From Escherichia coli (GTDB lineage Bacteria; Pseudomonadota; Gammaproteobacteria; Enterobacterales; Enterobacteriaceae), in assembly GCF_030013595.1 (NCBI RefSeq), contig NZ_CP122768.1: 64,000 nt of DNA. One strand, written 5' to 3'. The translations under genes and the position numbers were made by a program. The number at the start of each line of letters is the position of its first letter. Position 1 is the stretch's first letter. The notes beneath the pieces were generated by a model that was not told the DNA's origin, searched no databases, and was given only the letters and a program-made list of their open reading frames with translations. Positions 6,908 through 52,596 of the stretch are shown piece by piece.

Positions 6908-8530
<1,623 letters not shown>

Positions 8531-8552
8531 CTACCGCCAGATGTTACAGGGT

Positions 8553-9476
8553 TTATTCACTCATCGCATCGCGCCAGATCTTGTCAACGATACGTTGCGC
8601 CAGCACTGCCTGTTCGCCGGCGGTTTGCGGAACTGTCTGATTTTGCACACATTCAATGAAGTGCCGCGCACAGCCGACAAATCCACGTTGCTCAAGCGTA
8701 CTCTGCCAACCAGGAATCGGTTTATGCACTACGCCCTGCCCGCGCTCCTCACGCCATTCGCGCATATCCGTAATGTCGATGAGCGCACCGTCAGTCACGG
8801 CCTGCACGGTTTCACGCTGGCTTCCGGCACGGCGATGCATACAGGTGGTGATCTGCAAAGGACCGGCCGAAAAATGGTGCTCGGCAAACAGCATTTCGCC
8901 AGCGTCATTAGTCAGTAGCGTACCGCCATCCAGAGAGGCTTTACCGCCCGACAACCACAGCGCGGTATCCACCACATGCAGATAATCATCCAGCAACGTG
9001 AAATAAAGATCGTGTGGCCCGACGCTATTGCTACGATGTTTATCCATTCTTAGCGAGGCTGCGGTGGCGAGTTGCGTTTTTAACTCACCGTAGAGTGGTG
9101 CGAAACGACGGTTAAAACCGACCATCAACGTCAGTTTTTTCCGTGCCGCAAGTTCCACCAGCCGTTCAGCATCGCGCAGATTTTCTGCCAGCGGTTTATC
9201 GACACAGACATGTACCCCCGCATTGAGTAACGTACTGACCACGTCAAAGTGGCTGGCGGTGCTGGAATGCACAAAAACCGCATCGCAACTGGCGGCAAGG
9301 CTGGATAACGAATCGGCATAAGGAATGCGCCAGCTGTCACAAATTGGCAAGGCTTTCGCGCGCGTAGGCGACCACGCACCTTGTAACGTCCAGTCAGACG
9401 CTGCCGCCAGCACCGGTAACCACACCTTTTGCGCGATGCCGCCTAACCCCACTACGCCGATACGTAATTTTTTCAC
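8553..9476 (-). CDS. mviM: putative oxidoreductase MviM (Gfo/Idh/MocA family)
   Basis: ORF 8553..9509; Rossmann motif VGLGGIAQK; probable GTG start at 9476-9474 giving (M)KKLRIGVVG. Confidence 0.88.
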   Translation of the reverse strand: MKKLRIGVVGLGGIAQKVWLPVLAAASDWTLQGAWSPTRAKALPICDSWRIPYADSLSSLAASCDAVFVHSSTASHFDVVSTLLNAGVHVCVDKPLAENLRDAERLVELAARKKLTLMVGFNRRFAPLYGELKTQLATAASLRMDKHRSNSVGPHDLYFTLLDDYLHVVDTALWLSGGKASLDGGTLLTNDAGEMLFAEHHFSAGPLQITTCMHRRAGSQRETVQAVTDGALIDITDMREWREERGQGVVHKPIPGWQSTLEQRGFVGCARHFIECVQNQTVPQTAGEQAVLAQRIVDKIWRDAMSE

Positions 9477-17807: not shown

Positions 17808-18383
17808 ATGAAAAAAAGCCTGCTTGGTTTAACCTTCGCTTCCCTGATGTTCTCTGCCGGTTCAGCGGTTGCCGCCGATTACAAAATTGACAAAGAAGGT
17901 CAGCACGCCTTTGTTAACTTCCGCATCCAGCATCTTGGCTATAGCTGGTTATATGGCACCTTTAAAGATTTCGACGGTACTTTTACCTTTGATGAAAAAA
18001 ATCCAGCTGCCGATAAAGTGAATGTGACAATTAACACCACCAGCGTCGATACTAATCACGCCGAACGCGATAAACATCTTCGCAGTGCAGATTTCCTCAA
18101 TACCGCAAAATATCCACAGGCAACATTCACCTCCACCAGCGTGAAGAAAGACGGTGACGAACTGGATATTACCGGCGATCTGACGCTGAATGGCGTAACC
18201 AAACCCGTCACGCTGGAAGCGAAATTAATTGGTCAAGGCGACGACCCGTGGGGTGGTAAACGTGCAGGCTTCGAGGCCGAAGGCAAAATTAAGCTCAAGG
18301 ACTTCAATATCAAAACAGATTTAGGTCCAGCTTCTCAGGAAGTGGATATGATTATTTCAGTGGAAGGCGTACAGCAGAAGTAA
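17808..18383 (+). CDS. yceI: periplasmic YceI-family (polyisoprenoid-binding) protein
   Basis: 191-aa ORF with signal peptide [38 protein letters not shown]... Confidence 0.92.
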
Positions 18384-18395
18384 GAGTGAAATGTT

Positions 18396-18416
18396 GCCGG
18401 ATGACACGCATCCGGC
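18396..18416. terminator. bidirectional hairpin between convergent yceI and yceA
   Basis: GCCGGATG-ACACG-CATCCGGC hairpin between the two stop codons. Confidence 0.6.
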
Positions 18417-18424
18417 AATGATAT

Positions 18425-19477
18425 TTATTCTGTTGGATCAGGAATGCCCAGTGTTGTATTCAGACGTCCACGAGACTTATTAAAGATCTTATTGCCATTT
18501 TCACGTCCTGCCCGACGGCGTCGCTGTTCTTCAGGCGGTAACGCGCTTTCTTCGCAGCAAATCTCACTACAACAACCTTTGTATTTTTCCGCACATACTG
18601 GACACTGAATAAACAGCAGGTGGCAGCCATCATTTTTACAGTTGGTATGGCTGTCGCACGGCGCACCGCACTGGTGGCAATGCGCGATAATCTCATCAGA
18701 TATACGTTCGCCCATCCGCTCGTCAAAAACAAAATTTTTGCCAATAAAACGTACCGGTAAACCCTGCTCGCGCGCCTTGCGGGCGTATTCAATAATTCCG
18801 CCCTCGATATGCCAGACTTTATTGAATCCGTTATGTTTCATCCAGGCACTGGCCTTTTCACAACGAATGCCACCGGTGCAGTACATAACGATTTTTTTAT
18901 CTTTATGTGCCTGCATCATCTCGACTGCTTTTGGCAGCTGCTCACGGAAGGTATCTGCCGGAATTTCCAGCGCGTTTTCAAAGTGCCCCACTTCATACTC
19001 ATAGTGGTTACGCATGTCGATAAACAATGCATCGGGATCGTCAAGCATGGCGTTCACTTCCGCCGCTTGCAGATACTCACCCACATTGCTGGCATCAAAG
19101 TGAGGATCGTCAATACCGTCGGCAACAATGCGATCGCGAACCTTCATGCGCAGAACCCAGAAGGATTTCCCGTCATCATCCAACGCGATATTCAGGCGTA
19201 AGCCCTCTAAAGCCGGGTCGAAGGCATAGAGCTGTGCGCGAAATGTTTCAACATTGCTCGCAGGTACGCTGATTTGCGCGTTAACACCCTCATGCGCCAG
19301 ATACACTCGCCCAAAAACATTCAGCGCGGTAAACAGCTGATATAAAGCGTCACGGGTCGCCTTAGGATCGGCGATGTGGAAATACTTATAAAACGAAATG
19401 GTGGTTCGCGGTTCGCTCTCAGCCAACATTTTGGCTTTTAACGCGTCGTTGGAAATGCGGTTGTGTAACACTGGCAT
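18425..19477 (-). CDS. yceA: rhodanese-domain tRNA uridine(34) hydroxylase (YceA/TrhO)
   Basis: ORF 18425..19531; start trimmed to [26 protein letters not shown]...; rhodanese active-site [10 protein letters not shown]. Confidence 0.9.
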
Positions 19478-43008: not shown

Positions 43009-44397
43009 TTATAGATAGTATTTAAAGCCCAAATAAAGGCCTAACGTGTCGCCAAAAAGCGCAAATTCAGAATACCGACTTCCCAGCGCGCTATAGCCAC
43101 CGGCATAGGCTTCAAGCTGGTTACTGATAGCGCTGAGCGGCGTGGAATAATGCAGGCCCAGCAACGTGCTGCCATCAATGAGATTGACCACCAGCGAAGG
43201 CTGCAGCGTCGACTCTCCCGCCAGCGGCAGACTGGCCCAGGCGTTCAGATAGTGCTTACCCTGCAGCATCCCCTGATTGGCGGTATTGCTGATTTCTGAA
43301 GCCATCAGGTATTTGTAAGAATCAAATGCCTGATCCAGTGGCGCATAGCCGGTTGTGGTATTGAGGAAGTCAATTAACTCGCGCTGCTGACGCTGTTCAG
43401 CGCGCGAATACCCCTCGCTCTGAAAGTAATACTCAACGCCAAACACGCTGAAAATATCACTGGTGTACTGCCCACCCAGCGCCAGCTCCACGCCGCTTTC
43501 ATCTTTCGTTTCATAGAGCGAATCCGGAAACTGATATTCCTCGACCTGCGCCGTCTCACGGTGGGAAAGATGCCGCCATTGTTGGGAGCGGTGGTAGGCT
43601 GCGTCGACATTCAGCGTCAGCTGCGGGGTGTAGTGATAACTGTCAGACAGCGCGAGTGACGGCGATGGCCCGAGCCGCACATTGACTGTCGGCGTGTGCT
43701 CACCAAAGCGATGATCGCTGTAGCTCAGCAGATAGGCTTCATCGCTGTTTCCCTGCTGATTAGCCGACCAGTTGCCAGACGTCACATAGCGTTTGTCGAT
43801 GGTGGCTAACTTCGGTATGACGCTCGCCGAAAACGCATAATCGCGTGTATCCACGCTCATTTTTGCGCCCCACGATGACGCCTGATACGCCGATGTCATT
43901 TTGGGATCGTGCAAACGCGTCGACTGGAATCCGGTGTAATAATGCGTTTGCAAATCAGAAGGCGAACGCAAAAAGAACATTCCTGACGGCGCGGCAAATT
44001 TGCCTGCTTCAAATTGAACGCTGTCCGAGGCGCTATAGACCAGACTGAGGCGGTTAATTAACGCACGCGTGCGGCTATCATCCGTTTCGAATTTCCCTGC
44101 GAGTTTAAGCGCATATTCGTTTATTCCATACAGATTGAGCTTAAGGTCCAGCGTATTGTCGATTATCGAACAGCCACTGTTGATGCCAATCCCCGCCTCC
44201 TGATAACCGTTGTGACGAGTGTAGGGATTTTTGCCTGCAATCTGCCAGGCCGAAGCCTGTTTATTGACATAAGACACCTGCTCGTAAAGCGTCACATCGC
44301 TGTTTTGTGCCACCTCGTCACCTGACAGGCAATCCGCCTGTACCGTCAACGGCAGCACAACACACAGCAACGAAGAGATCTTCAGCGCACGTTTCAT
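43009..44397 (-). CDS. putative outer-membrane beta-barrel protein
   Basis: 462-aa ORF with N-terminal signal peptide MKRALKISSLLCVVLPLTVQA, Tyr/Gly/Ser-rich alternating pattern, C-terminal aromatic-rich ...LGLYLGFKYYL; 4-nt overlap with upstream gene. Confidence 0.5.
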   Translation of the reverse strand: MKRALKISSLLCVVLPLTVQADCLSGDEVAQNSDVTLYEQVSYVNKQASAWQIAGKNPYTRHNGYQEAGIGINSGCSIIDNTLDLKLNLYGINEYALKLAGKFETDDSRTRALINRLSLVYSASDSVQFEAGKFAAPSGMFFLRSPSDLQTHYYTGFQSTRLHDPKMTSAYQASSWGAKMSVDTRDYAFSASVIPKLATIDKRYVTSGNWSANQQGNSDEAYLLSYSDHRFGEHTPTVNVRLGPSPSLALSDSYHYTPQLTLNVDAAYHRSQQWRHLSHRETAQVEEYQFPDSLYETKDESGVELALGGQYTSDIFSVFGVEYYFQSEGYSRAEQRQQRELIDFLNTTTGYAPLDQAFDSYKYLMASEISNTANQGMLQGKHYLNAWASLPLAGESTLQPSLVVNLIDGSTLLGLHYSTPLSAISNQLEAYAGGYSALGSRYSEFALFGDTLGLYLGFKYYL

Positions 44398-45182
44398 TTC
44401 GCACCTCGCTGAATATATTCTTTGGTGAAATGAAACTCCGGCAGCGATTCCAGACGAACATCGCTGTACTCCATCACTGAATAGTTATTGCCGTGACGGA
44501 CATCGTTAACGGTGATTTTCATGGGTCGCGTTTTCCCCAGCACCGGCTGGAAATCCTGATACAACACTTCTTTTATTAACTGGTCATCCTGCGAATAATA
44601 GGCCGCCTTCCACGGGCGATTATCACCGTCTTTTTCAACGTAATAGATAACCTTCGGCCAGGTGATATCCGCCGATTTACGCACCAGTGCGAGCTTGTAA
44701 CACTGCTTTTCAGCACAAGAGACTTCCCCCACCAGGGTCGAGTCATAGGCATATTCAAAGTTAGTGACAATGACATCGCCGTTAGAGATTTGCCCAATTA
44801 ATCTTTGTTGCCGTGAAATAGGCATCGGACGTCGCAATTCCGGCGTGTAAAACCATAAATCGTACCAGTCGGAAAGCATGATTTTTCCTTTGTCTCGCGG
44901 CGGATAAATAAAACGCACCAGCGAGCGTGCATCCGCTTTTTCATTACCCTGCGGTTTCATAAAACGCATGGAAATATCGAGGATCTGTTTATTCTCTGGC
45001 TGGGTTGCGCCCGCTTTATATTCCGTTACCGTCAGCGTGTAACGAAACGGTTTATTCGGCGAACGAATTTCATCAGCGCGACGAATTATCTCCAGCGCCT
45101 TATTATCTGTGCTCGCCGCCTGAACGCACGACGTAGCGAGCCACAGGCAAGCAAACCACTTGCCGTAAAAAGCCATATTCAT
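44394..45182 (-). CDS. secreted LolA-like (outer-membrane lipoprotein-sorting fold) protein, putative
   Basis: 262-aa ORF with signal peptide; size and context (next to FtsX/ABC pair) suggest a periplasmic lipid/lipoprotein carrier; fold assignment not verifiable by eye. Confidence 0.4.
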   Translation of the reverse strand: MNMAFYGKWFACLWLATSCVQAASTDNKALEIIRRADEIRSPNKPFRYTLTVTEYKAGATQPENKQILDISMRFMKPQGNEKADARSLVRFIYPPRDKGKIMLSDWYDLWFYTPELRRPMPISRQQRLIGQISNGDVIVTNFEYAYDSTLVGEVSCAEKQCYKLALVRKSADITWPKVIYYVEKDGDNRPWKAAYYSQDDQLIKEVLYQDFQPVLGKTRPMKITVNDVRHGNNYSVMEYSDVRLESLPEFHFTKEYIQRGAK

Positions 45183-45190
45183 AATCAGTC

Positions 45191-46501
45191 CTACGAGAAT
45201 TTAAATGCGTCAGAAATATTCAGCCGGGAAGCACGTAAAGCCGGTAACACAGAGGCTCCTGTTGCTGTCAAAATGGGTAATACCACCGTCACCCAAATCA
45301 ATTCCGGGTTACTGGTTTTTATAAAGGCGGTATAGCCGATGGTTTGTCCAGGCGATGGCGGCATCGCAATACCATAAAGATTAATAATCCAGGCTAGCAC
45401 GCCCCCCACCATCAGGCTACCGACTGCGCCAATCACACCAATAAAAATACCTTCCGTCAGAAACAAGCGCGTGACATGAAGAGGCTTCAGACCTATGGCA
45501 CGCAGAGTGGTTATTTCACGGGTGCGCTCAACAATGTTCATTGCCATCGAATTGCCGATCATGAAGATGACAATCAGCGCAACAATCAGCTTGATGAAGA
45601 AATAGATCCCCGACAGTAACCCCTCAACCTGTTGATAAAAGAGTGAAACATCACGCCAGTCTTTGACCACCAGCGGCAAATGATTGCGTTCTATAAACTG
45701 ACGCAGCTTTGCGCTAAACGCCGCGGTGTCATCCTCTTTAAGCAGAATAAGCACTTTGCTGACGCCATCCGTACCCATCATGCGCTGCGCAGTGTCCAGC
45801 GGGATCTTCATCGCGACATCGTCATAATCTTTAATGCCTGACTCAAAAATGCCACGCAGTTTTAGCGACAATGCGCCCTGCCCGCCCGCCGTGTTGACGA
45901 CCATCACATCCAGCCAGTCGTCGTATTTCGCATTCAACGTTTTCGCCAGGCCGCTGCCCAGGGTGATTTCATCACCTTTTACCCGGGAAAGATCGCTCCC
46001 CGCGATAATCTTATCGAACGATCCCAGCTTTAAAGCGGGTAACGGCTCGACACCCAGCGCAGAGAAATAGCTGGAGGTTTCGCTCTCGTAATGTGAAATT
46101 ACGCCAGTAAACTCAAGTTGCCCGGAGAGCGTGGAAATATCCGTCGCCAGCGTCGGGTCCGACAAAATAGCTTTCTTTAACGCCGCATAATCGGCAATCA
46201 GGCTCTTATTTTTATTCGACGTTTCAAAATAGTGCTGATTGTAAATCTGTACATGACCAATATTGGTGCGAATCGTCTGCTCTTTCAGGATCCAGAAAGA
46301 GTAATCAATAAATCCGCCATATAAAAAAATTGCCACGCCGCCCAATACAATGGCAGTTATAGTAGAAAAAGAGCGACGCTTGTGGCGAAAGAGATTCAAA
46401 AATGCAAATTTGACATCTCGTGAATAAAACAGAAGCTGATAAAACACAAAAAACAGAATCAGCAGCAGAACGCAATTAACAGCTAAAATTTCCCCGGACA
46501 T
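45191..46501 (-). CDS. ABC transporter permease, FtsX/MacB/LolCE type
   Basis: 436-aa ORF: N-terminal TM helix, large periplasmic domain, C-terminal cluster of three TM helices (…FFIKLIVALIVIFMIGNSMAMNIVERTREITTLRAIGLKP…). Confidence 0.75.
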   Translation of the reverse strand: MSGEILAVNCVLLLILFFVFYQLLFYSRDVKFAFLNLFRHKRRSFSTITAIVLGGVAIFLYGGFIDYSFWILKEQTIRTNIGHVQIYNQHYFETSNKNKSLIADYAALKKAILSDPTLATDISTLSGQLEFTGVISHYESETSSYFSALGVEPLPALKLGSFDKIIAGSDLSRVKGDEITLGSGLAKTLNAKYDDWLDVMVVNTAGGQGALSLKLRGIFESGIKDYDDVAMKIPLDTAQRMMGTDGVSKVLILLKEDDTAAFSAKLRQFIERNHLPLVVKDWRDVSLFYQQVEGLLSGIYFFIKLIVALIVIFMIGNSMAMNIVERTREITTLRAIGLKPLHVTRLFLTEGIFIGVIGAVGSLMVGGVLAWIINLYGIAMPPSPGQTIGYTAFIKTSNPELIWVTVVLPILTATGASVLPALRASRLNISDAFKFS

Positions 46502-47158
46502 TTACTCACCTTTCATCAGCGGCAGCAGTACCTGGGTTAACTCTTCACTATCCCATTCTGGTACAACATTAAAATTCTGCGTCAGCGACTGCGCAAGCGC
46601 GGCGTTTTGCCCTTTAATTTGCGCCAACAACGCATTCGCGCGGGTGGTGTCCTTGCAGTGACGTAATGCACGATAACGCATCGCCAGAATATGGTCGCGA
46701 ATCGTTGTCGCCCATATCGCCCGGTCAGCCAGCATGTGCTCGGTGTCCTGGACTGTCACCACGCAACGCCCTGAATCTGCGGGTAAATAGGCATCTACGC
46801 GGGCACGTAAATAACGTACGCGTTGATTTTTCTCCTGCAAATCCACCGCTTCATCCAGCCAGAAAAAGCCGCTTTTTGCGTATTCTGAGGCATGGATAAA
46901 ATCGTTTGTTGCCGCATAACCGTCCGCCTGACGCAGTAAGCCATAGGCGTAAAAAACCAGCGCCACCACATTGTGCCTGGCTTCATACTCTTTCTTTAAC
47001 GCTTCGGTCAGCGTCGCCAGCGCGGCAGGCTGCGCCGGAAGCCCTTGTTGCAGAACCTGGTTAACGGCGTCGGGAGTTGCCGCGTAAATCTTCGGGGCCA
47101 AAAACGCCGCATACAAAAAGACGCCGATAAGCAAAAATCCTTTATGCATCTGAGTCAT
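46502..47158 (-). CDS. secreted hypothetical protein
   Basis: 218-aa ORF with signal peptide [31 protein letters not shown]...; no recognisable motif. Confidence 0.45.
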   Translation of the reverse strand: MTQMHKGFLLIGVFLYAAFLAPKIYAATPDAVNQVLQQGLPAQPAALATLTEALKKEYEARHNVVALVFYAYGLLRQADGYAATNDFIHASEYAKSGFFWLDEAVDLQEKNQRVRYLRARVDAYLPADSGRCVVTVQDTEHMLADRAIWATTIRDHILAMRYRALRHCKDTTRANALLAQIKGQNAALAQSLTQNFNVVPEWDSEELTQVLLPLMKGE

Positions 47159-47849
47159 GAATCAATACTCCATCCTGAATTTCAACCACTCGCCGAGCCC
47201 GCGCTTTTAATTCGCTGGAGTGCGTGGAAATAACAAATGTGGTGCCGGTCTGCTGATTAATCGTCAACAGCAGGTCCAAAATAGCCTCGCCGGTTGCCAG
47301 GTCTAAATTTCCCGTCGGTTCATCGGCAATGACCACCATCGGTTCGTGTGCCAGTGCCCGGGCGATGGCGACACGCTGTTGTTGACCGCCCGATAGTTGC
47401 CCAGGTTTGCGATCGCCAAAACCGCTTAATCCGACGCTATCGAGATAGTGCAGCGTCCGTTCAGTGGCTTCTTTTTTACTGAACTGACCATTAAGCACCA
47501 GTGGGAAATAAACGTTATCGAAAACATTTAATACCGGCATAAGGTTAAAAAACTGAAAAATAAAACCCAGATGTTTTCCACGAATCACAGCTAACTGCTC
47601 TTCAGGCAGTTGGTTCAGTAATTTATTTAAAAATATCACCGTTCCGCTGGTCGGTTTATCAATACCCGAGAGAATATTCAACAGAGTACTTTTACCACTG
47701 CCTGACGGCCCACACAGTGCGAGAAATTCGCCTTTATTGATATCAAGATTAATGCTTTTAAGCGCATCAACCTTTCCTGCCCCGGCACCATAACACTTGT
47801 AAATGTTGCTAAGTGAAATAGCGGGCAACGATTTAATAGTAGATTGCAT
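47142..47849 (-). CDS. ABC transporter ATP-binding protein (LolD/MacB-type)
   Basis: Walker [13 protein letters not shown] signature [15 protein letters not shown], Walker [13 protein letters not shown]; start trimmed to [21 protein letters not shown]. Confidence 0.88.
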
Positions 47850-47859
47850 ACGACTGTCG

Positions 47860-48813
47860 TTATCCTTCAAGGTATTCAAGGTCAAAGTAGTGATAACCAA
47901 ACTGTTTATCGGCAATGACCGTACGCATTTTTCCACCGGGCTGAATATGACGGGTTAAATAATCCATACTCAGCGCGGGCGTCAGACAACCGCTTTCTCC
48001 GTAATGGGCTACCAGGTCGATAACGCCAGCAGCAGGCCGGGACGGCATTTGTCGCCGTTCGCTGAAGGCCATGACATCAATATCCGTAGCATGCTGTGGC
48101 GAAGTGCCGGAATGATATTCCCCGCATTGCAGCCTGATGGCGCTCTCACGCTGGCTGAGAATAAAACAACCCACTCGTTCAACAGATAAATTCACCTCAT
48201 CAGCGCGACGGGGGAATAAACGCTTAGGCGGTTTACCCACATCCTCTTCAGAGAATACCAGTACCGGAATTGCCCGATAGGCAGCGCAAATAACCACGTT
48301 ATCGAATACATCCCAGGCGAGATAATCCTGCGCCATACGCAGCGCCTGAACGAATGCCTGTTTTTCGCCACGAATTTTGCAAGTCGGCTCCGTTATCGAA
48401 AACTTCTTAAGTAAATTCTTGGGAAGCGTATCAATAGTGGCGATATGCAGCGCACTGGAAATTTTTTCAAACGGACCGGATTCGCCCCAGGAATCGGCAT
48501 AAATAAATGCCGTGCGCGATTTCATTAACTTCATGCGCTCTTTAGTCGGCATTTGTTGTAATGCAGAATCGGTTACCTGCTCCATCGCCTCAAGGTAAGG
48601 CATATATTGCGGATTACGGATCCGTTCTGGCGCATAAATATCGTTCTCCACGCCAAAGCGCTTCAGCCCCCAGCCATTAGCACGGGTGCCGTATAATCCT
48701 CTTTCGTACATATGTGCTTCCCAGGCGTTGAGCCAGGTCGGCTGATAAAAATAAAAAATGTCGTCCGGTTCCGTAAGCGCCCAGGAAGACAGGTAGATAC
48801 TCTTTTCCGTCAT
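47860..48813 (-). CDS. hypothetical protein
   Basis: 317-aa ORF MTEKSIYLSSWALTEPDDIFYFYQPTWLNAWEAHMYERG...; no motif recognised; 4-nt overlap with upstream KS gene. Confidence 0.45.
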   Translation of the reverse strand: MTEKSIYLSSWALTEPDDIFYFYQPTWLNAWEAHMYERGLYGTRANGWGLKRFGVENDIYAPERIRNPQYMPYLEAMEQVTDSALQQMPTKERMKLMKSRTAFIYADSWGESGPFEKISSALHIATIDTLPKNLLKKFSITEPTCKIRGEKQAFVQALRMAQDYLAWDVFDNVVICAAYRAIPVLVFSEEDVGKPPKRLFPRRADEVNLSVERVGCFILSQRESAIRLQCGEYHSGTSPQHATDIDVMAFSERRQMPSRPAAGVIDLVAHYGESGCLTPALSMDYLTRHIQPGGKMRTVIADKQFGYHYFDLEYLEG

Positions 48814-50037: not shown

Positions 50038-52596
50038 TTATCCCTTAATGACGAACGCGTAGTAGTTGCCGCCTTCCGTTGCGCCAACAAGCAGGACATG
50101 GTTCAGCGCAAGTTTCATCGACTGGCGTACAAAATTCACACGCTCATCAAAGAATTCCACCGTATTTGGAATCGCAGGTACTGCTTGCTTCTTAATGCAG
50201 TCAGTAATCACGGCGAGGTTAAGCAAACCAGCGGCAGAGGCGACAAAACCAAAGCAAGCGTTGTAGTTCACTACCGGCACCGCCGGGTTTTGCGCGGCGA
50301 AGGTGTTATAGATCGCGTCAATTTCGATACGAGAATGGTCATCGCTACCGTTGCTGGTACCACATACCAAATCAATATCGCCAGCAGAGATGCCCGCATG
50401 GGTAAGGGCGTGTTCAATGGCCAGCGCCATCGACGCGGATTTTTCTTCCAACAATGAGGCGTCGAAGTAGGTATTGCTGCATGACTTGCCGTAGCCCACC
50501 ACTTCCGCGAGAACCTCAACGCCACGCGCCGCAGCCAACTGCGGATCTTCCAACAGCAGCATGCAGGCACCTTCGCCCGGAACATAGCCCTGCGGATCTT
50601 TACCGTAAATCTGATAGTCACACGCCTCAGCCGTCATGTGGATCTTTTGCGTCACCGCATCCATATACAGCGACATAGACGGGAAGTACTCATCCGCGCC
50701 GCCAACTAATACCTGCGGTTGCAGGTTCTGCCGGACGATTTCATAACCGTAGGTCAGCGCGCCCAGCGCCGAGTTTTCCCCTGTCGCAAGCGTAGTGGTA
50801 TACCCTTTGATCCCTTCAGAGATCCCGCAGAACGTTGGGATCGCATTCATCAGCGAGCCAGGAAATTCCGACGTACGTACTTTGCGTGGATCGGGTTTCA
50901 GGCTTTGCAGATATTTGTAGGTGGTTTCCTGCGGACCACGGGACATCCCCATGATCATGCCCAGCTCATCGCCGTCGCGTTTGATTTTACGCTTCGCCTG
51001 TTCCAGCGCTTCGGTGAGTGCGATCAGGGCAAACGTGCCGCCACGGGTCGCTTTACGCGGGTCAAAACGACGCAGGTGTTTACGCGGCTCCAGCCCGGAA
51101 ACCTGGAACGTTTTGAAGTTGCTTGCCGTTTCCGGAAGCGTAGCGTCGCTGAAGCTGTACTCTTCATCAAACAGCTCGGCAAACTGGTTTGATTCATCCA
51201 GCACGGCCAGCAGCTCTTTGGCTTCTTCCAGCGTATCGTCCGGGAAGGTTACGCTACCCAGTTCAACGTGGTGGTCCTGCGCCCAGATGTTTTCCAGAAC
51301 CTGGTTGAGCGTGTGGCCAATTGCGGATACTGCACCGACGCCCGAGATAGCCACACGCTTCGAATCATAGGTACTGACCGGAATGGACGCGGGCTCCATG
51401 CTCAGGATCATGCAGCAATTGTTGCCGCCGAAGGCATAGTTATTCTTCATGAAGATGTTCACTTTGCGATCGCGAAATTCATTCGGCACATAGTCCAGAT
51501 CGCAATTCGGGCGTGCCTGGCTGAAATTCAGCGTCGGCAGTACGCGGTTGTCCGGCAGTGTTGCCAGACAGGCAATCAGTTCCACAATCCCCGCTGCGCC
51601 AATGTTGTGGCCAAAGTAAGATTTGGTGGAGCTCACCAGCAGTTTATCGTGGTTAGCGAAGACCTTTTTCATTGCCAGCGTTTCGATACGGTCATTGGCT
51701 TCGGTACCTGTACCGTGCGCGTTGACGTAATCGATTTGCTCTGGGGTTACGCCCGCATTTGCCATTGCCTTGTTCATGACCTGCACCGCTCCGCTGGCAC
51801 GCGGATCTGGCCCGGTTTCATGGAAAGCATCGCAGGAAGTGGCGTAAGAGAGGATCTCACCATAAATGGTCGCCCCGCGTGCTACGGCGTGCTCATACTC
51901 TTCCAGCACGATAGCGCCCGCACCTTCACCAATCGACATACCGGACTGACCCGAGAACGGCGTACAGGTGTCTGGATGCATGACATTCAGTGCGTAGAAT
52001 CCGGCAAAGGTCGGCAGATAGATGGGCTCAGTGCCCACTGCCAGCATGGTTTTGCTTTTACCATTCTGGATGTAGTCAAAGGCCATCCCCACGGCGTTCG
52101 GGCTGGCGGTACACGCGGTCGCCACCAGTTCAACCCCACCCTGTAAGCCCAGCAGCGTTGAAACGCTGGAACAACAGGATGAGAATGCGCCGGAAAAGAG
52201 TGCTTTACGCAGCGAGAAATCTTCCATGCGCTGTTCGAACAGCGGTAAAAAGGCCTCTGTACCCGCGGAGGAAACACCGACGATCATGCCTGTTTCTTTG
52301 AGAGTGTCACGGCTATCCATCAGGCCGGCCTGACTCAGCGCATCTTTACCCACTTTGTAGGCCCAGAGCGCTGCGTTATCCAGTGAATCGATAACATCTT
52401 CGTTCAGATCGGAGTATTCAATGTCATGCAACACTTCTGCCGCACGCGCATTTTCAAACCATTTTGCAAAGCGTTCGCTATCCTTAACGCCATTTTTTTT
52501 ATTTAATAATGCTTCCCGGAAATCCTGAATATTTTCCGCCAGTGAGGACAAAATCCCCAGCCCGGTAATAACAACTCTTTTCCTGTTCGTTTTCAT
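50038..52596 (-). CDS. di-domain beta-ketoacyl-ACP synthase (KS plus KS-like/CLF-like domain)
   Basis: 852-aa ORF; N-domain with ATACTAS (Cys), NAHGTGTEANDRIE and KSYFGHNIGAAG motifs as in FabB/FabF; C-terminal ~420 aa thiolase-like with weaker motifs. Confidence 0.8.
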   Translation of the reverse strand: MKTNRKRVVITGLGILSSLAENIQDFREALLNKKNGVKDSERFAKWFENARAAEVLHDIEYSDLNEDVIDSLDNAALWAYKVGKDALSQAGLMDSRDTLKETGMIVGVSSAGTEAFLPLFEQRMEDFSLRKALFSGAFSSCCSSVSTLLGLQGGVELVATACTASPNAVGMAFDYIQNGKSKTMLAVGTEPIYLPTFAGFYALNVMHPDTCTPFSGQSGMSIGEGAGAIVLEEYEHAVARGATIYGEILSYATSCDAFHETGPDPRASGAVQVMNKAMANAGVTPEQIDYVNAHGTGTEANDRIETLAMKKVFANHDKLLVSSTKSYFGHNIGAAGIVELIACLATLPDNRVLPTLNFSQARPNCDLDYVPNEFRDRKVNIFMKNNYAFGGNNCCMILSMEPASIPVSTYDSKRVAISGVGAVSAIGHTLNQVLENIWAQDHHVELGSVTFPDDTLEEAKELLAVLDESNQFAELFDEEYSFSDATLPETASNFKTFQVSGLEPRKHLRRFDPRKATRGGTFALIALTEALEQAKRKIKRDGDELGMIMGMSRGPQETTYKYLQSLKPDPRKVRTSEFPGSLMNAIPTFCGISEGIKGYTTTLATGENSALGALTYGYEIVRQNLQPQVLVGGADEYFPSMSLYMDAVTQKIHMTAEACDYQIYGKDPQGYVPGEGACMLLLEDPQLAAARGVEVLAEVVGYGKSCSNTYFDASLLEEKSASMALAIEHALTHAGISAGDIDLVCGTSNGSDDHSRIEIDAIYNTFAAQNPAVPVVNYNACFGFVASAAGLLNLAVITDCIKKQAVPAIPNTVEFFDERVNFVRQSMKLALNHVLLVGATEGGNYYAFVIKG

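Follow-up and report, generated by a model that had tools for sequence, protein, structure and literature searches.

A five-gene block in a biosynthetic operon of Escherichia coli as a candidate Lol-like exporter with a predicted outer-membrane barrel

Results

A five-gene block within a biosynthetic operon

The 64,000-nucleotide stretch of Escherichia coli DNA analysed here (contig NZ_CP122768.1; hereafter the window) carries five contiguous genes on its minus strand (43009-47849) within an operon that probably directs synthesis of a lipid. We consider it rather likely, though well short of certain, that they specify a trans-envelope exporter dedicated to the lipid of the surrounding operon, Lol-like in plan and with a beta-barrel in the place of LolB. 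In order of transcription, the genes are:

47142-47849, minus strand: ABC (ATP-binding cassette) ATPase of 235 aa, a separate polypeptide resembling LolD and the nucleotide-binding domain of MacB; same start in RefSeq, assigned by hidden Markov model and motifs
46502-47158, minus strand: secreted protein of 218 aa, modelled as a tetratricopeptide repeat (TPR)-like helical-repeat protein and possibly an accessory or adaptor
45191-46501, minus strand: FtsX/MacB-type (type VII ABC) permease of 436 aa, assigned by the Pfam domains FtsX and MacB_PCD
44394-45182, minus strand: secreted LolA_like carrier of 262 aa (PF17131, 'TP_0789-like'), assigned by Pfam and PDB matches
43009-44397, minus strand: outer-membrane beta-barrel of 462 aa with 18 strands, predicted from an AlphaFold2 model and belonging to an unannotated rare family

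RefSeq annotates all five genes with identical ends. The reading frames of the ATPase and the 218-aa protein overlap by 17 nt, those of the 218-aa protein and the permease abut (0-nt gap), the permease and carrier genes are 8 nt apart, and the carrier and barrel genes overlap by 4 nt; no promoter-like or terminator-like signal above shuffled expectation was found inside the block. Ketosynthase genes lie on the upstream side of the block, and a FabD gene follows it downstream. These coordinates and flanking genes bear out the initial annotation, which had described a contiguous transport block with overlapping start and stop codons inside a biosynthetic operon. That annotation spoke of a four-component exporter, whereas the block has five genes: the 218-aa protein, TPR-like in its model, is conserved as a block member. 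A longer reading frame of the ATPase, extending to a GTG at 47936, was rejected; it overlaps the upstream gene, RefSeq takes the ATG, and the homologues are 205-233 aa in length.

The ABC ATPase and the permease

All three ABC motifs reported for the ATPase are present: a pattern search located Walker A (GPSGSGKS) and the signature (LSGGQ), and Walker B can be read in the sequence as VVIADE. The nearest families are LolD (the top one), YbbA, DarD and MacB. Compared with the NCBIfam model of LolD (TIGR02211), the ATPase scored E=1.1e-67 and 227.7 bits, below the equivalog cut-off of 307.75; compared with that of MacB (NF007826), it scored 202 bits and the permease 22.4 bits, both missing the cut-off of 966. 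Identity of the ATPase to orthologues of other genera is 56-57%.

The permease has the layout of a type VII ABC transporter, with a C-terminal FtsX domain (residues 302-429, 1.5e-16) and a MacB_PCD domain (residues 44-268, 7.9e-9) inserted between canonical helices 1 and 2. Hydrophobic segments lie at residues 47-65, 295-313, 347-378 and 401-419, and the large periplasmic domain claimed for this protein is found between helices as a region of about 230 aa. Among solved structures, the relatives are LolE (7ARH, 3.9e-14), LolF, LolC and MacB, the first three being the nearest; the NCBIfam model of LolC/E (TIGR02212) gave 3.4e-26 and 92.1 bits, below the cut-off of 362.45. A single permease gene is present in the window block and in all orthologous loci, which contain neither a LolC/LolE pair nor LolF. 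The term 'Lol/MacB-like' therefore holds at the superfamily level but not more narrowly, as the curated cut-offs for LolD, LolC/E and MacB were all missed and only one permease gene is present.

In one respect the permease departs from the four-helix plan: an extra hydrophobic N-terminal helix (residues 5-23) precedes the canonical first helix. This suggests a fifth membrane helix, which would be unusual among type VII ABC transporters. The N-terminal extension (about 25 residues; residues 1-23 correspond to 46433-46501) is conserved within the operon family and absent from the homologues of Rubrivivax, Ideonella and Magnetominusculus. An apparent 663-aa TPR-permease fusion in Rahnella laticis proved to be an artefact, as the tblastn match had crossed a stop codon and the 218-aa homologue has its own stop.

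The LolA_like carrier

The 262-aa protein matched Pfam LolA_like (PF17131) with E=9.6e-36 over model positions 2-184 of 184, and PDB entry 3BUU ('LolA superfamily protein NE2245') with E=1.5e-34 over residues 29-259; 4Z48 and 9TP6 were matched as well. The LolA-type fold assigned through PF17131 and 3BUU, together with a signal-like N-terminal segment, agrees with the earlier description of a secreted LolA-like protein. Cysteines C156 and C161 are invariant, and identity to distant orthologues is 44-53%. No NCBIfam match to LolA or LolB was obtained for the carrier, nor to any other NCBIfam family. A lipoprotein anchor on the carrier was rejected, there being no conserved N-terminal cysteine or lipobox. 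Solved structures exist for the PF17131 family, whose function is not known.

The block might alternatively be a paralogue of the lipoprotein-sorting (Lol) system. It would then move a specific lipoprotein or assist in the assembly of an envelope protein, for example the adhesin machinery for two-partner secretion next to it. The LolE, LolF and LolC matches of the permease, the LolD match of the ATPase and the RefSeq product name 'outer membrane lipoprotein-sorting protein' would fit such a role, as would the two-partner secretion genes directly upstream on the same strand. We nevertheless regard it as very improbable: none of the Lol equivalog cut-offs was reached, the carrier matched neither the LolA nor the LolB family, and no conserved lipobox was found in any block protein. 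Furthermore, other genera link the block to biosynthetic genes, and two-partner secretion genes were not seen among the conserved neighbours there.

The predicted barrel and the TPR-like protein

Using AlphaFold2 on an alignment of 16 sequences, we obtained for the 462-aa protein a model of a barrel with 18 strands (predicted local distance difference test, pLDDT, 82.4; predicted template modelling score, pTM, 0.81). The model has short periplasmic turns and long external loops, with two helices at 332-374 in one of the loops. Most homologues end in W or F, which is usual for barrel proteins. With its signal peptide, strands, short turns and aromatic C-terminal residue, the protein looks like an 18-stranded outer-membrane barrel, in line with the putative barrel of the initial annotation. 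Neither the 262-aa nor the 462-aa protein therefore has a fold unrelated to the one first ascribed to it. Two cysteines are conserved near the mature N-terminus of the barrel protein; a lipoprotein anchor was rejected here too, as the cysteine lies at +2 after the signal peptide, is preceded by Asp/Glu and is paired with the second cysteine.

By sequence, the 462-aa protein is not a member of the OprD/Occ, AlgE, Wzi or maltoporin families. Its own family comprises 39 representative clusters among 1.84 billion, and every context examined was this operon. A profile search with an extended alignment, covering up to 8000 candidates, gave only operon-type homologues among the matches listed, nearly all of them named 'hypothetical protein' and one 'Lipoprotein'.

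The 218-aa protein, modelled with 30 orthologues, formed an all-helical repeat (pLDDT 90.5) of the helical-hairpin solenoid type, and the best matches of the model were TPR proteins, including the barrel-associated PilW, PilF and BamD. Orthologues occur in the same taxa and not beyond them, some bearing the name Sel1 or TPR. As modelled, it is a TPR-like periplasmic protein and a conserved part of the block. Signal peptides and conserved cysteine pairs occur in the 218-aa protein, the carrier and the barrel protein alike, which fits a periplasmic or outer-membrane location of these three non-cytoplasmic proteins. Sequence searches of Pfam, NCBIfam and PDB gave nothing useful for the 462-aa and 218-aa proteins, or for two further products of the operon described below, the 317-aa protein and YcdU.

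The structures closest to the barrel model are mostly substrate-specific uptake channels (Occ/OprD, chitoporin and maltoporin). They would suit an uptake route, in which a hydrophobic precursor or starter would enter through the barrel, travel on the carrier and be handed by the ABC system to the inner membrane, where the synthase would use it. A precedent of a kind is found in Thalassolituus, in which long-chain alkanes induce a LolA-like/MMPL protein together with the porin next to it (PMC6304351). Uptake is still a very improbable explanation in our judgment, because the block contains no importer-type substrate-binding-protein fold, and FabD, acyl carrier protein (ACP) and ketosynthase (KS) in the operon would allow chains to be built from malonyl units without imported lipid. 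In addition, no FtsX/MacB-type ABC importer is known.

Conservation of the block and a four-gene core

Scanning one genome per species (100,044 species) with an alignment of the LolA-like protein, we found 47 loci, the genes of which were then tabulated by tblastn. In 38 of the 47 species loci, from many Enterobacterales, one Acinetobacter and several Paraburkholderia, all five genes were present, in order, in the same operon; such an arrangement is not due to chance. The conserved order is GcvT, fused KS/CLF (CLF, chain-length factor), KS, 317-aa protein, ABC ATPase, TPR-like protein, FtsX-type permease, LolA_like carrier, barrel and FabD; the proteins are in some cases as little as about 25% identical. 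The distant homologues of the barrel protein (21-31% identity) showed the same neighbourhood wherever the contig was long enough, including a KS/CLF of about 850 aa, unknown proteins of about 350 aa and about 220 aa, and a terminal membrane protein of about 350 aa after FabD. In five Pseudomonas loci, the carrier-barrel-FabD trio stands ahead of the synthase genes, the genes for the ATPase, TPR-like protein and permease lying beyond the fetched flank; Aquipseudomonas alcaligenes has an orthologue of the TPR-like protein. Other searches added Klebsiella oxytoca, K. aerogenes, Proteus, Providencia, Aeromonas, a Neisseria and one plasmid copy.

In Winslowiella and some other genomes, an extra gene for a short-chain dehydrogenase/reductase (SDR), a ketoreductase, is inserted between the permease and LolA_like genes and splits the transport block. 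Its positions in three of the loci are 8371-9126 (L002), 8068-8826 (L006) and 2243-2998 (L003).

The three most distant matches, in the Betaproteobacteria Rubrivivax and Ideonella and in Magnetominusculus of the Nitrospirota, contain genes for the ABC ATPase, the FtsX-type permease and the LolA_like carrier followed by an ORF (open reading frame) of about 430-460 aa. Profile comparison identified this ORF as a remote barrel homologue (probability 96-98%, E 1e-9 to 1e-13). The four-gene core spans 7799-12066 in L051, 7822-11961 in L054 and 7841-12146 in L055; no TPR-like protein was detected by tblastn at these three loci. Its neighbours there are genes for adenine deaminase, a diguanylate cyclase and XrtA/PEP-CTERM exopolysaccharide functions, the last in Rubrivivax. 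Because the core is inherited together even in these bacteria, the ATPase, permease, carrier and barrel probably act together, and its stand-alone occurrence suggests that the four-gene unit predates its capture by this operon.

The proposal that the exporter is dedicated to the cluster was upheld in part. Strict synteny in about 40 species and the near confinement of the barrel and 218-aa families to this operon argue for such a link. The four-gene core, however, is also found away from operons of this kind, beside unrelated genes; cargo specificity would therefore not be a property of the machine, which is not intrinsically tied to this product.

The surrounding operon and its probable product

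The other genes of the operon are listed below from upstream to downstream. Those from AcpS to the KS-like protein were assigned from NCBIfam and from RefSeq annotation of a near-identical strain.

55496-55864, minus strand: AcpS
54721-55482, minus strand: SDR ketoreductase
54169-54717, minus strand: FabZ-like dehydratase
53866-54147, minus strand: ACP
52670-53830, minus strand: GcvT-like aminomethyltransferase
50038-52596, minus strand: fused KS/CLF of 852 aa
48810-50033, minus strand: KS-like protein
47860-48813, minus strand: conserved protein of 317 aa, directly upstream of the ATPase
42054-42998, minus strand: FabD-like malonyl-CoA:ACP transacylase (full-length ymdE), directly downstream of the barrel; TIGR00128, 1.6e-52; annotated as ACP S-malonyltransferase
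41071-42057, minus strand: YcdU, a polytopic inner-membrane protein encoded at the end of the operon; seven hydrophobic windows, of which two overlap

The gaps between the 317-aa and ATPase genes and between the barrel and FabD genes are 10 nt each, and the FabD gene overlaps ycdU by 4 nt.

The operon thus encodes KS/CLF, a second KS-like protein, ketoreductase (KR), dehydratase (DH), ACP, FabD, AcpS and a GcvT-like enzyme; no enoyl reductase is annotated in it. Because KS/CLF, KR, DH, ACP, FabD and AcpS occur with no annotated enoyl reductase, and because the GcvT-like enzyme recalls that of the streptococcal cyl operon, the product is probably a polyunsaturated acyl lipid of the polyene type. 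It is from this gene content that we propose the cargo of the exporter. A homologue search with the GcvT-like enzyme did not reach CylF, and only close enterobacterial relatives were among the matches listed.

The 317-aa protein is present in all orthologous clusters at 26-61% identity; its RefSeq name differs between two strains ('ATP-binding protein' and 'hypothetical'). We regard it as a candidate for the step of release or acyl transfer that is missing.

In E. coli K-12, IS3 interrupts ymdE, leaving a truncated pseudogene, and ycdU is retained (PMC4951805). YcdU shows weak homology (E ~1e-6) to the product of the last gene of the cluster in other genera. Since full-length FabD (ymdE) and YcdU end the operon, the K-12 ymdE-ycdU pair looks like what is left of this cluster, not like the border of an insertion.

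Upstream of the operon, on the same strand and 16 nt from acpS, lies a two-partner secretion pair, consisting of a ShlB/FhaC-type transporter (55880-57499) and its partner, a filamentous-haemagglutinin-like protein of 1270 aa (57588-61400).

Locus, strain background and intactness

The 4.9-kb block is 97.7% identical to that of many O157:H7 genomes and 100% identical to that of the pig isolate HCP5S3_I2. Of 5426 complete E. coli genomes, 389 contain it, 382 of these at least 80% of it. Along the chromosome, the order is mdoGH, csg, ycdXYZ, ghrA, tRNA-Ser(GGA), ycdU, the cluster, and then two-partner-secretion and fimbrial genes. Given the O157:H7 match, the locus is probably O-island 47, the 'adhesin and polyketide or fatty-acid biosynthesis' island. 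O-island 47 (z1528-z1556, 31.7 kb) occurs in nearly all O157:H7 strains (reviewed in PMC8565820). Our literature search found no study of this operon, its product or its exporter.

Relative to O157:H7, the genes from ycdU through the GcvT-like gene are all intact, with no stop codons and dN/dS of 0-0.17, and all block genes are under purifying selection. The ATPase gene differs by 16 synonymous and 0 non-synonymous changes.

The segment between the tRNA and ycdU is repetitive. A 179-bp unit is repeated 4.4 times at 99% identity (40145-40937), beginning in the 3' end of tRNA-Ser(GGA) (40072-40159) and filling the gap to ycdU; it generates a ladder of spurious overlapping ORFs on both strands. 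In O157:H7 strain 611, about 190 bp separate the tRNA from ycdU, roughly one such unit. An Rfam scan matched the tRNA only. The ycdU gene itself is an intact ORF of 328 codons in the window (41071-42057) and in O157:H7, and is annotated as frameshifted in HCP5S3_I2 (18064-19049 of its locus).

Discussion

Relation to known envelope transport systems

Three kinds of component are common to the block and the LolCDE-LolA-LolB system of E. coli: an ABC ATPase, a permease of the FtsX type whose periplasmic domain is large, and a soluble carrier from the LolA superfamily in the periplasm. With them comes a shared logic of extraction from the inner membrane, shuttling and delivery. The block differs in having one permease gene, a PF17131 carrier and an 18-stranded barrel (as modelled) instead of the lipoprotein LolB, and in adding the TPR-like protein, the N-terminal helix of the permease and a cargo that is presumably a non-protein lipid. 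No LolB-like outer-membrane lipoprotein receptor is encoded in the block; the downstream neighbour of the carrier gene is that of the barrel.

An FtsX/MacB-type permease with a MacB_PCD domain and a closely related ATPase are also found in MacAB-TolC and in DevBCA/DarBCD. These systems, however, need an adaptor of the HlyD/MacA type and a duct of the TolC type, and MacB is a fused ATPase-permease, whereas the two are encoded by separate genes here. No membrane-fusion adaptor of the MacA/HlyD type was found among the annotated or predicted genes of the operon, in which the sole extra periplasmic protein is the TPR-like one. DevBCA exports polyketide-derived heterocyst glycolipids, and DarBCD exports darobactin. 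The 218-aa protein recalls the TPR partners of barrels in the AlgK/AlgE, PilF and BamD pairs, at the level of fold and with 6-13% identity; those TPR proteins are outer-membrane lipoproteins, unlike the 218-aa protein, which has no lipobox, and their systems carry polysaccharides or proteins.

Aryl-polyene (APE) clusters encode a set of LolA-like, LolB-like and RND (resistance-nodulation-division) proteins, and it has been proposed that this set brings the lipid to the outer membrane (PMC8253772). As with ApeL/ApeM/ApeN of E. coli CFT073 (PMC8253772), genes for envelope transport, including a LolA-like carrier, lie here inside an enterobacterial operon that resembles type II fatty acid synthase and is probably for a polyene lipid. 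The APE system relies on the RND protein ApeM and the LolB-like DUF3261 protein ApeN, in contrast to the type VII ABC system and predicted beta-barrel of the present block, in which neither an RND-family component nor a DUF3261 protein is present; moreover, this operon includes a GcvT-like enzyme but lacks an adenylating starter enzyme. In architecture, the block comes closest to Borrelia BBJ23-29, predicted computationally in 2026 to be a system of MacB-like ABC, LolA-like and Omp85 barrel proteins (PMC13078400). There, however, the barrel is of the Omp85/BamA type, the accessory proteins are others, and no biosynthetic operon is linked.

On the biosynthetic side, a parallel is offered by the streptococcal cyl operon, whose product is the polyene lipid granadaene and which encodes the exporter CylA/B (PMC6985545). 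At the level of function, the two operons have in common FabD, KR, DH, ACP, KS, a GcvT-like aminomethyltransferase, an equivalent of ACP synthase and an embedded ABC exporter (PMC6985545). Neither a CylE-type acyltransferase nor a CylJ glycosyltransferase was recognised in the E. coli operon. The cyl hosts are Gram-positive and have a single membrane, for which CylA/CylB suffice, whereas a two-membrane cell would need three envelope parts beyond those of a single-membrane cell.

The cyl comparison also bears on a different fate of the product. CylA/B is described as carrying the pigment to the cell surface (PMC6985545), and granadaene is a cytolytic lipid. The block could be a pump for self-protection or secretion, expelling a membrane-damaging product through the barrel to the medium or into vesicles, with the carrier as a transient relay. 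MacB-family and DarD-type ATPases are among the best matches of the ATPase, and the export channel AlgE is among the top matches of the barrel model. We consider this unlikely, though not negligibly so: the block has no gene for the membrane-fusion protein used by MacAB-TolC and DarBCD-type pumps, and a soluble lipid carrier suits shuttling more than a continuous duct. Secretion differs from delivery to the outer membrane solely in its end point, and sequence cannot separate the two.

Proposed mechanism

Taking the block as a Lol-like exporter of the operon's lipid, we propose the following route. In the inner membrane, the single FtsX-type permease would form a homodimer driven by two copies of the ATPase. 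By analogy to LolCDE and MacB, ATP-driven motion of the periplasmic domain of the permease (mechanotransmission) would extract the amphiphile from the outer leaflet of that membrane, at which the product would have to arrive beforehand. The lipid may then be passed to the soluble LolA_like carrier, which would shield the acyl chain through the periplasm and unload at the 18-stranded barrel, standing in LolB's place, for insertion into the outer membrane or movement to the cell surface. The periplasmic TPR-like protein could be an adaptor that docks or scaffolds either the barrel or the carrier, in the manner of AlgK, PilF and BamD with their barrels.

Several points weigh against this proposal. 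The likeness to cyl is a parallel drawn function by function. The core adjoins genes unrelated to polyene synthesis at the three distant loci, most of the structures that best match the barrel are uptake channels, and the barrel model itself was built on a shallow alignment. No flippase was identified by which a cytoplasmically made acyl-ACP product could reach the periplasmic leaflet, and type VII ABC transporters are not known to flip lipids.

A broader interpretation can be offered tentatively, and we hold it with less than even confidence. The ATPase, permease, PF17131 carrier and barrel may make up a class of lipid export pathway, not described before, that spans phyla, needs no LolB and ends at the outer membrane in a barrel belonging to a new family. 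Enterobacterales (enterohaemorrhagic E. coli O157:H7, Klebsiella oxytoca, Enterobacter) would have captured this unit, added the TPR adaptor and put it to use in displaying a granadaene-like polyene lipid on their surface.

Significance

How Gram-negative bacteria transport specialised lipids to the outer membrane is understood for few cargoes, namely lipoproteins, lipopolysaccharide and phospholipids. The block described here is a candidate pathway, compact and separable by genetics, in which the outer-membrane receptor would be of a new kind, combining an unannotated barrel family with a PF17131 carrier. The operon also occurs in Klebsiella and Enterobacter, and its parts resemble those of the streptococcal operon for a haemolytic lipid. 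If the cargo were identified, an island of a major pathogen that has long gone under the label 'polyketide or fatty-acid' would gain a function, and the retention of the ymdE-ycdU remnant by E. coli K-12 would be explained.

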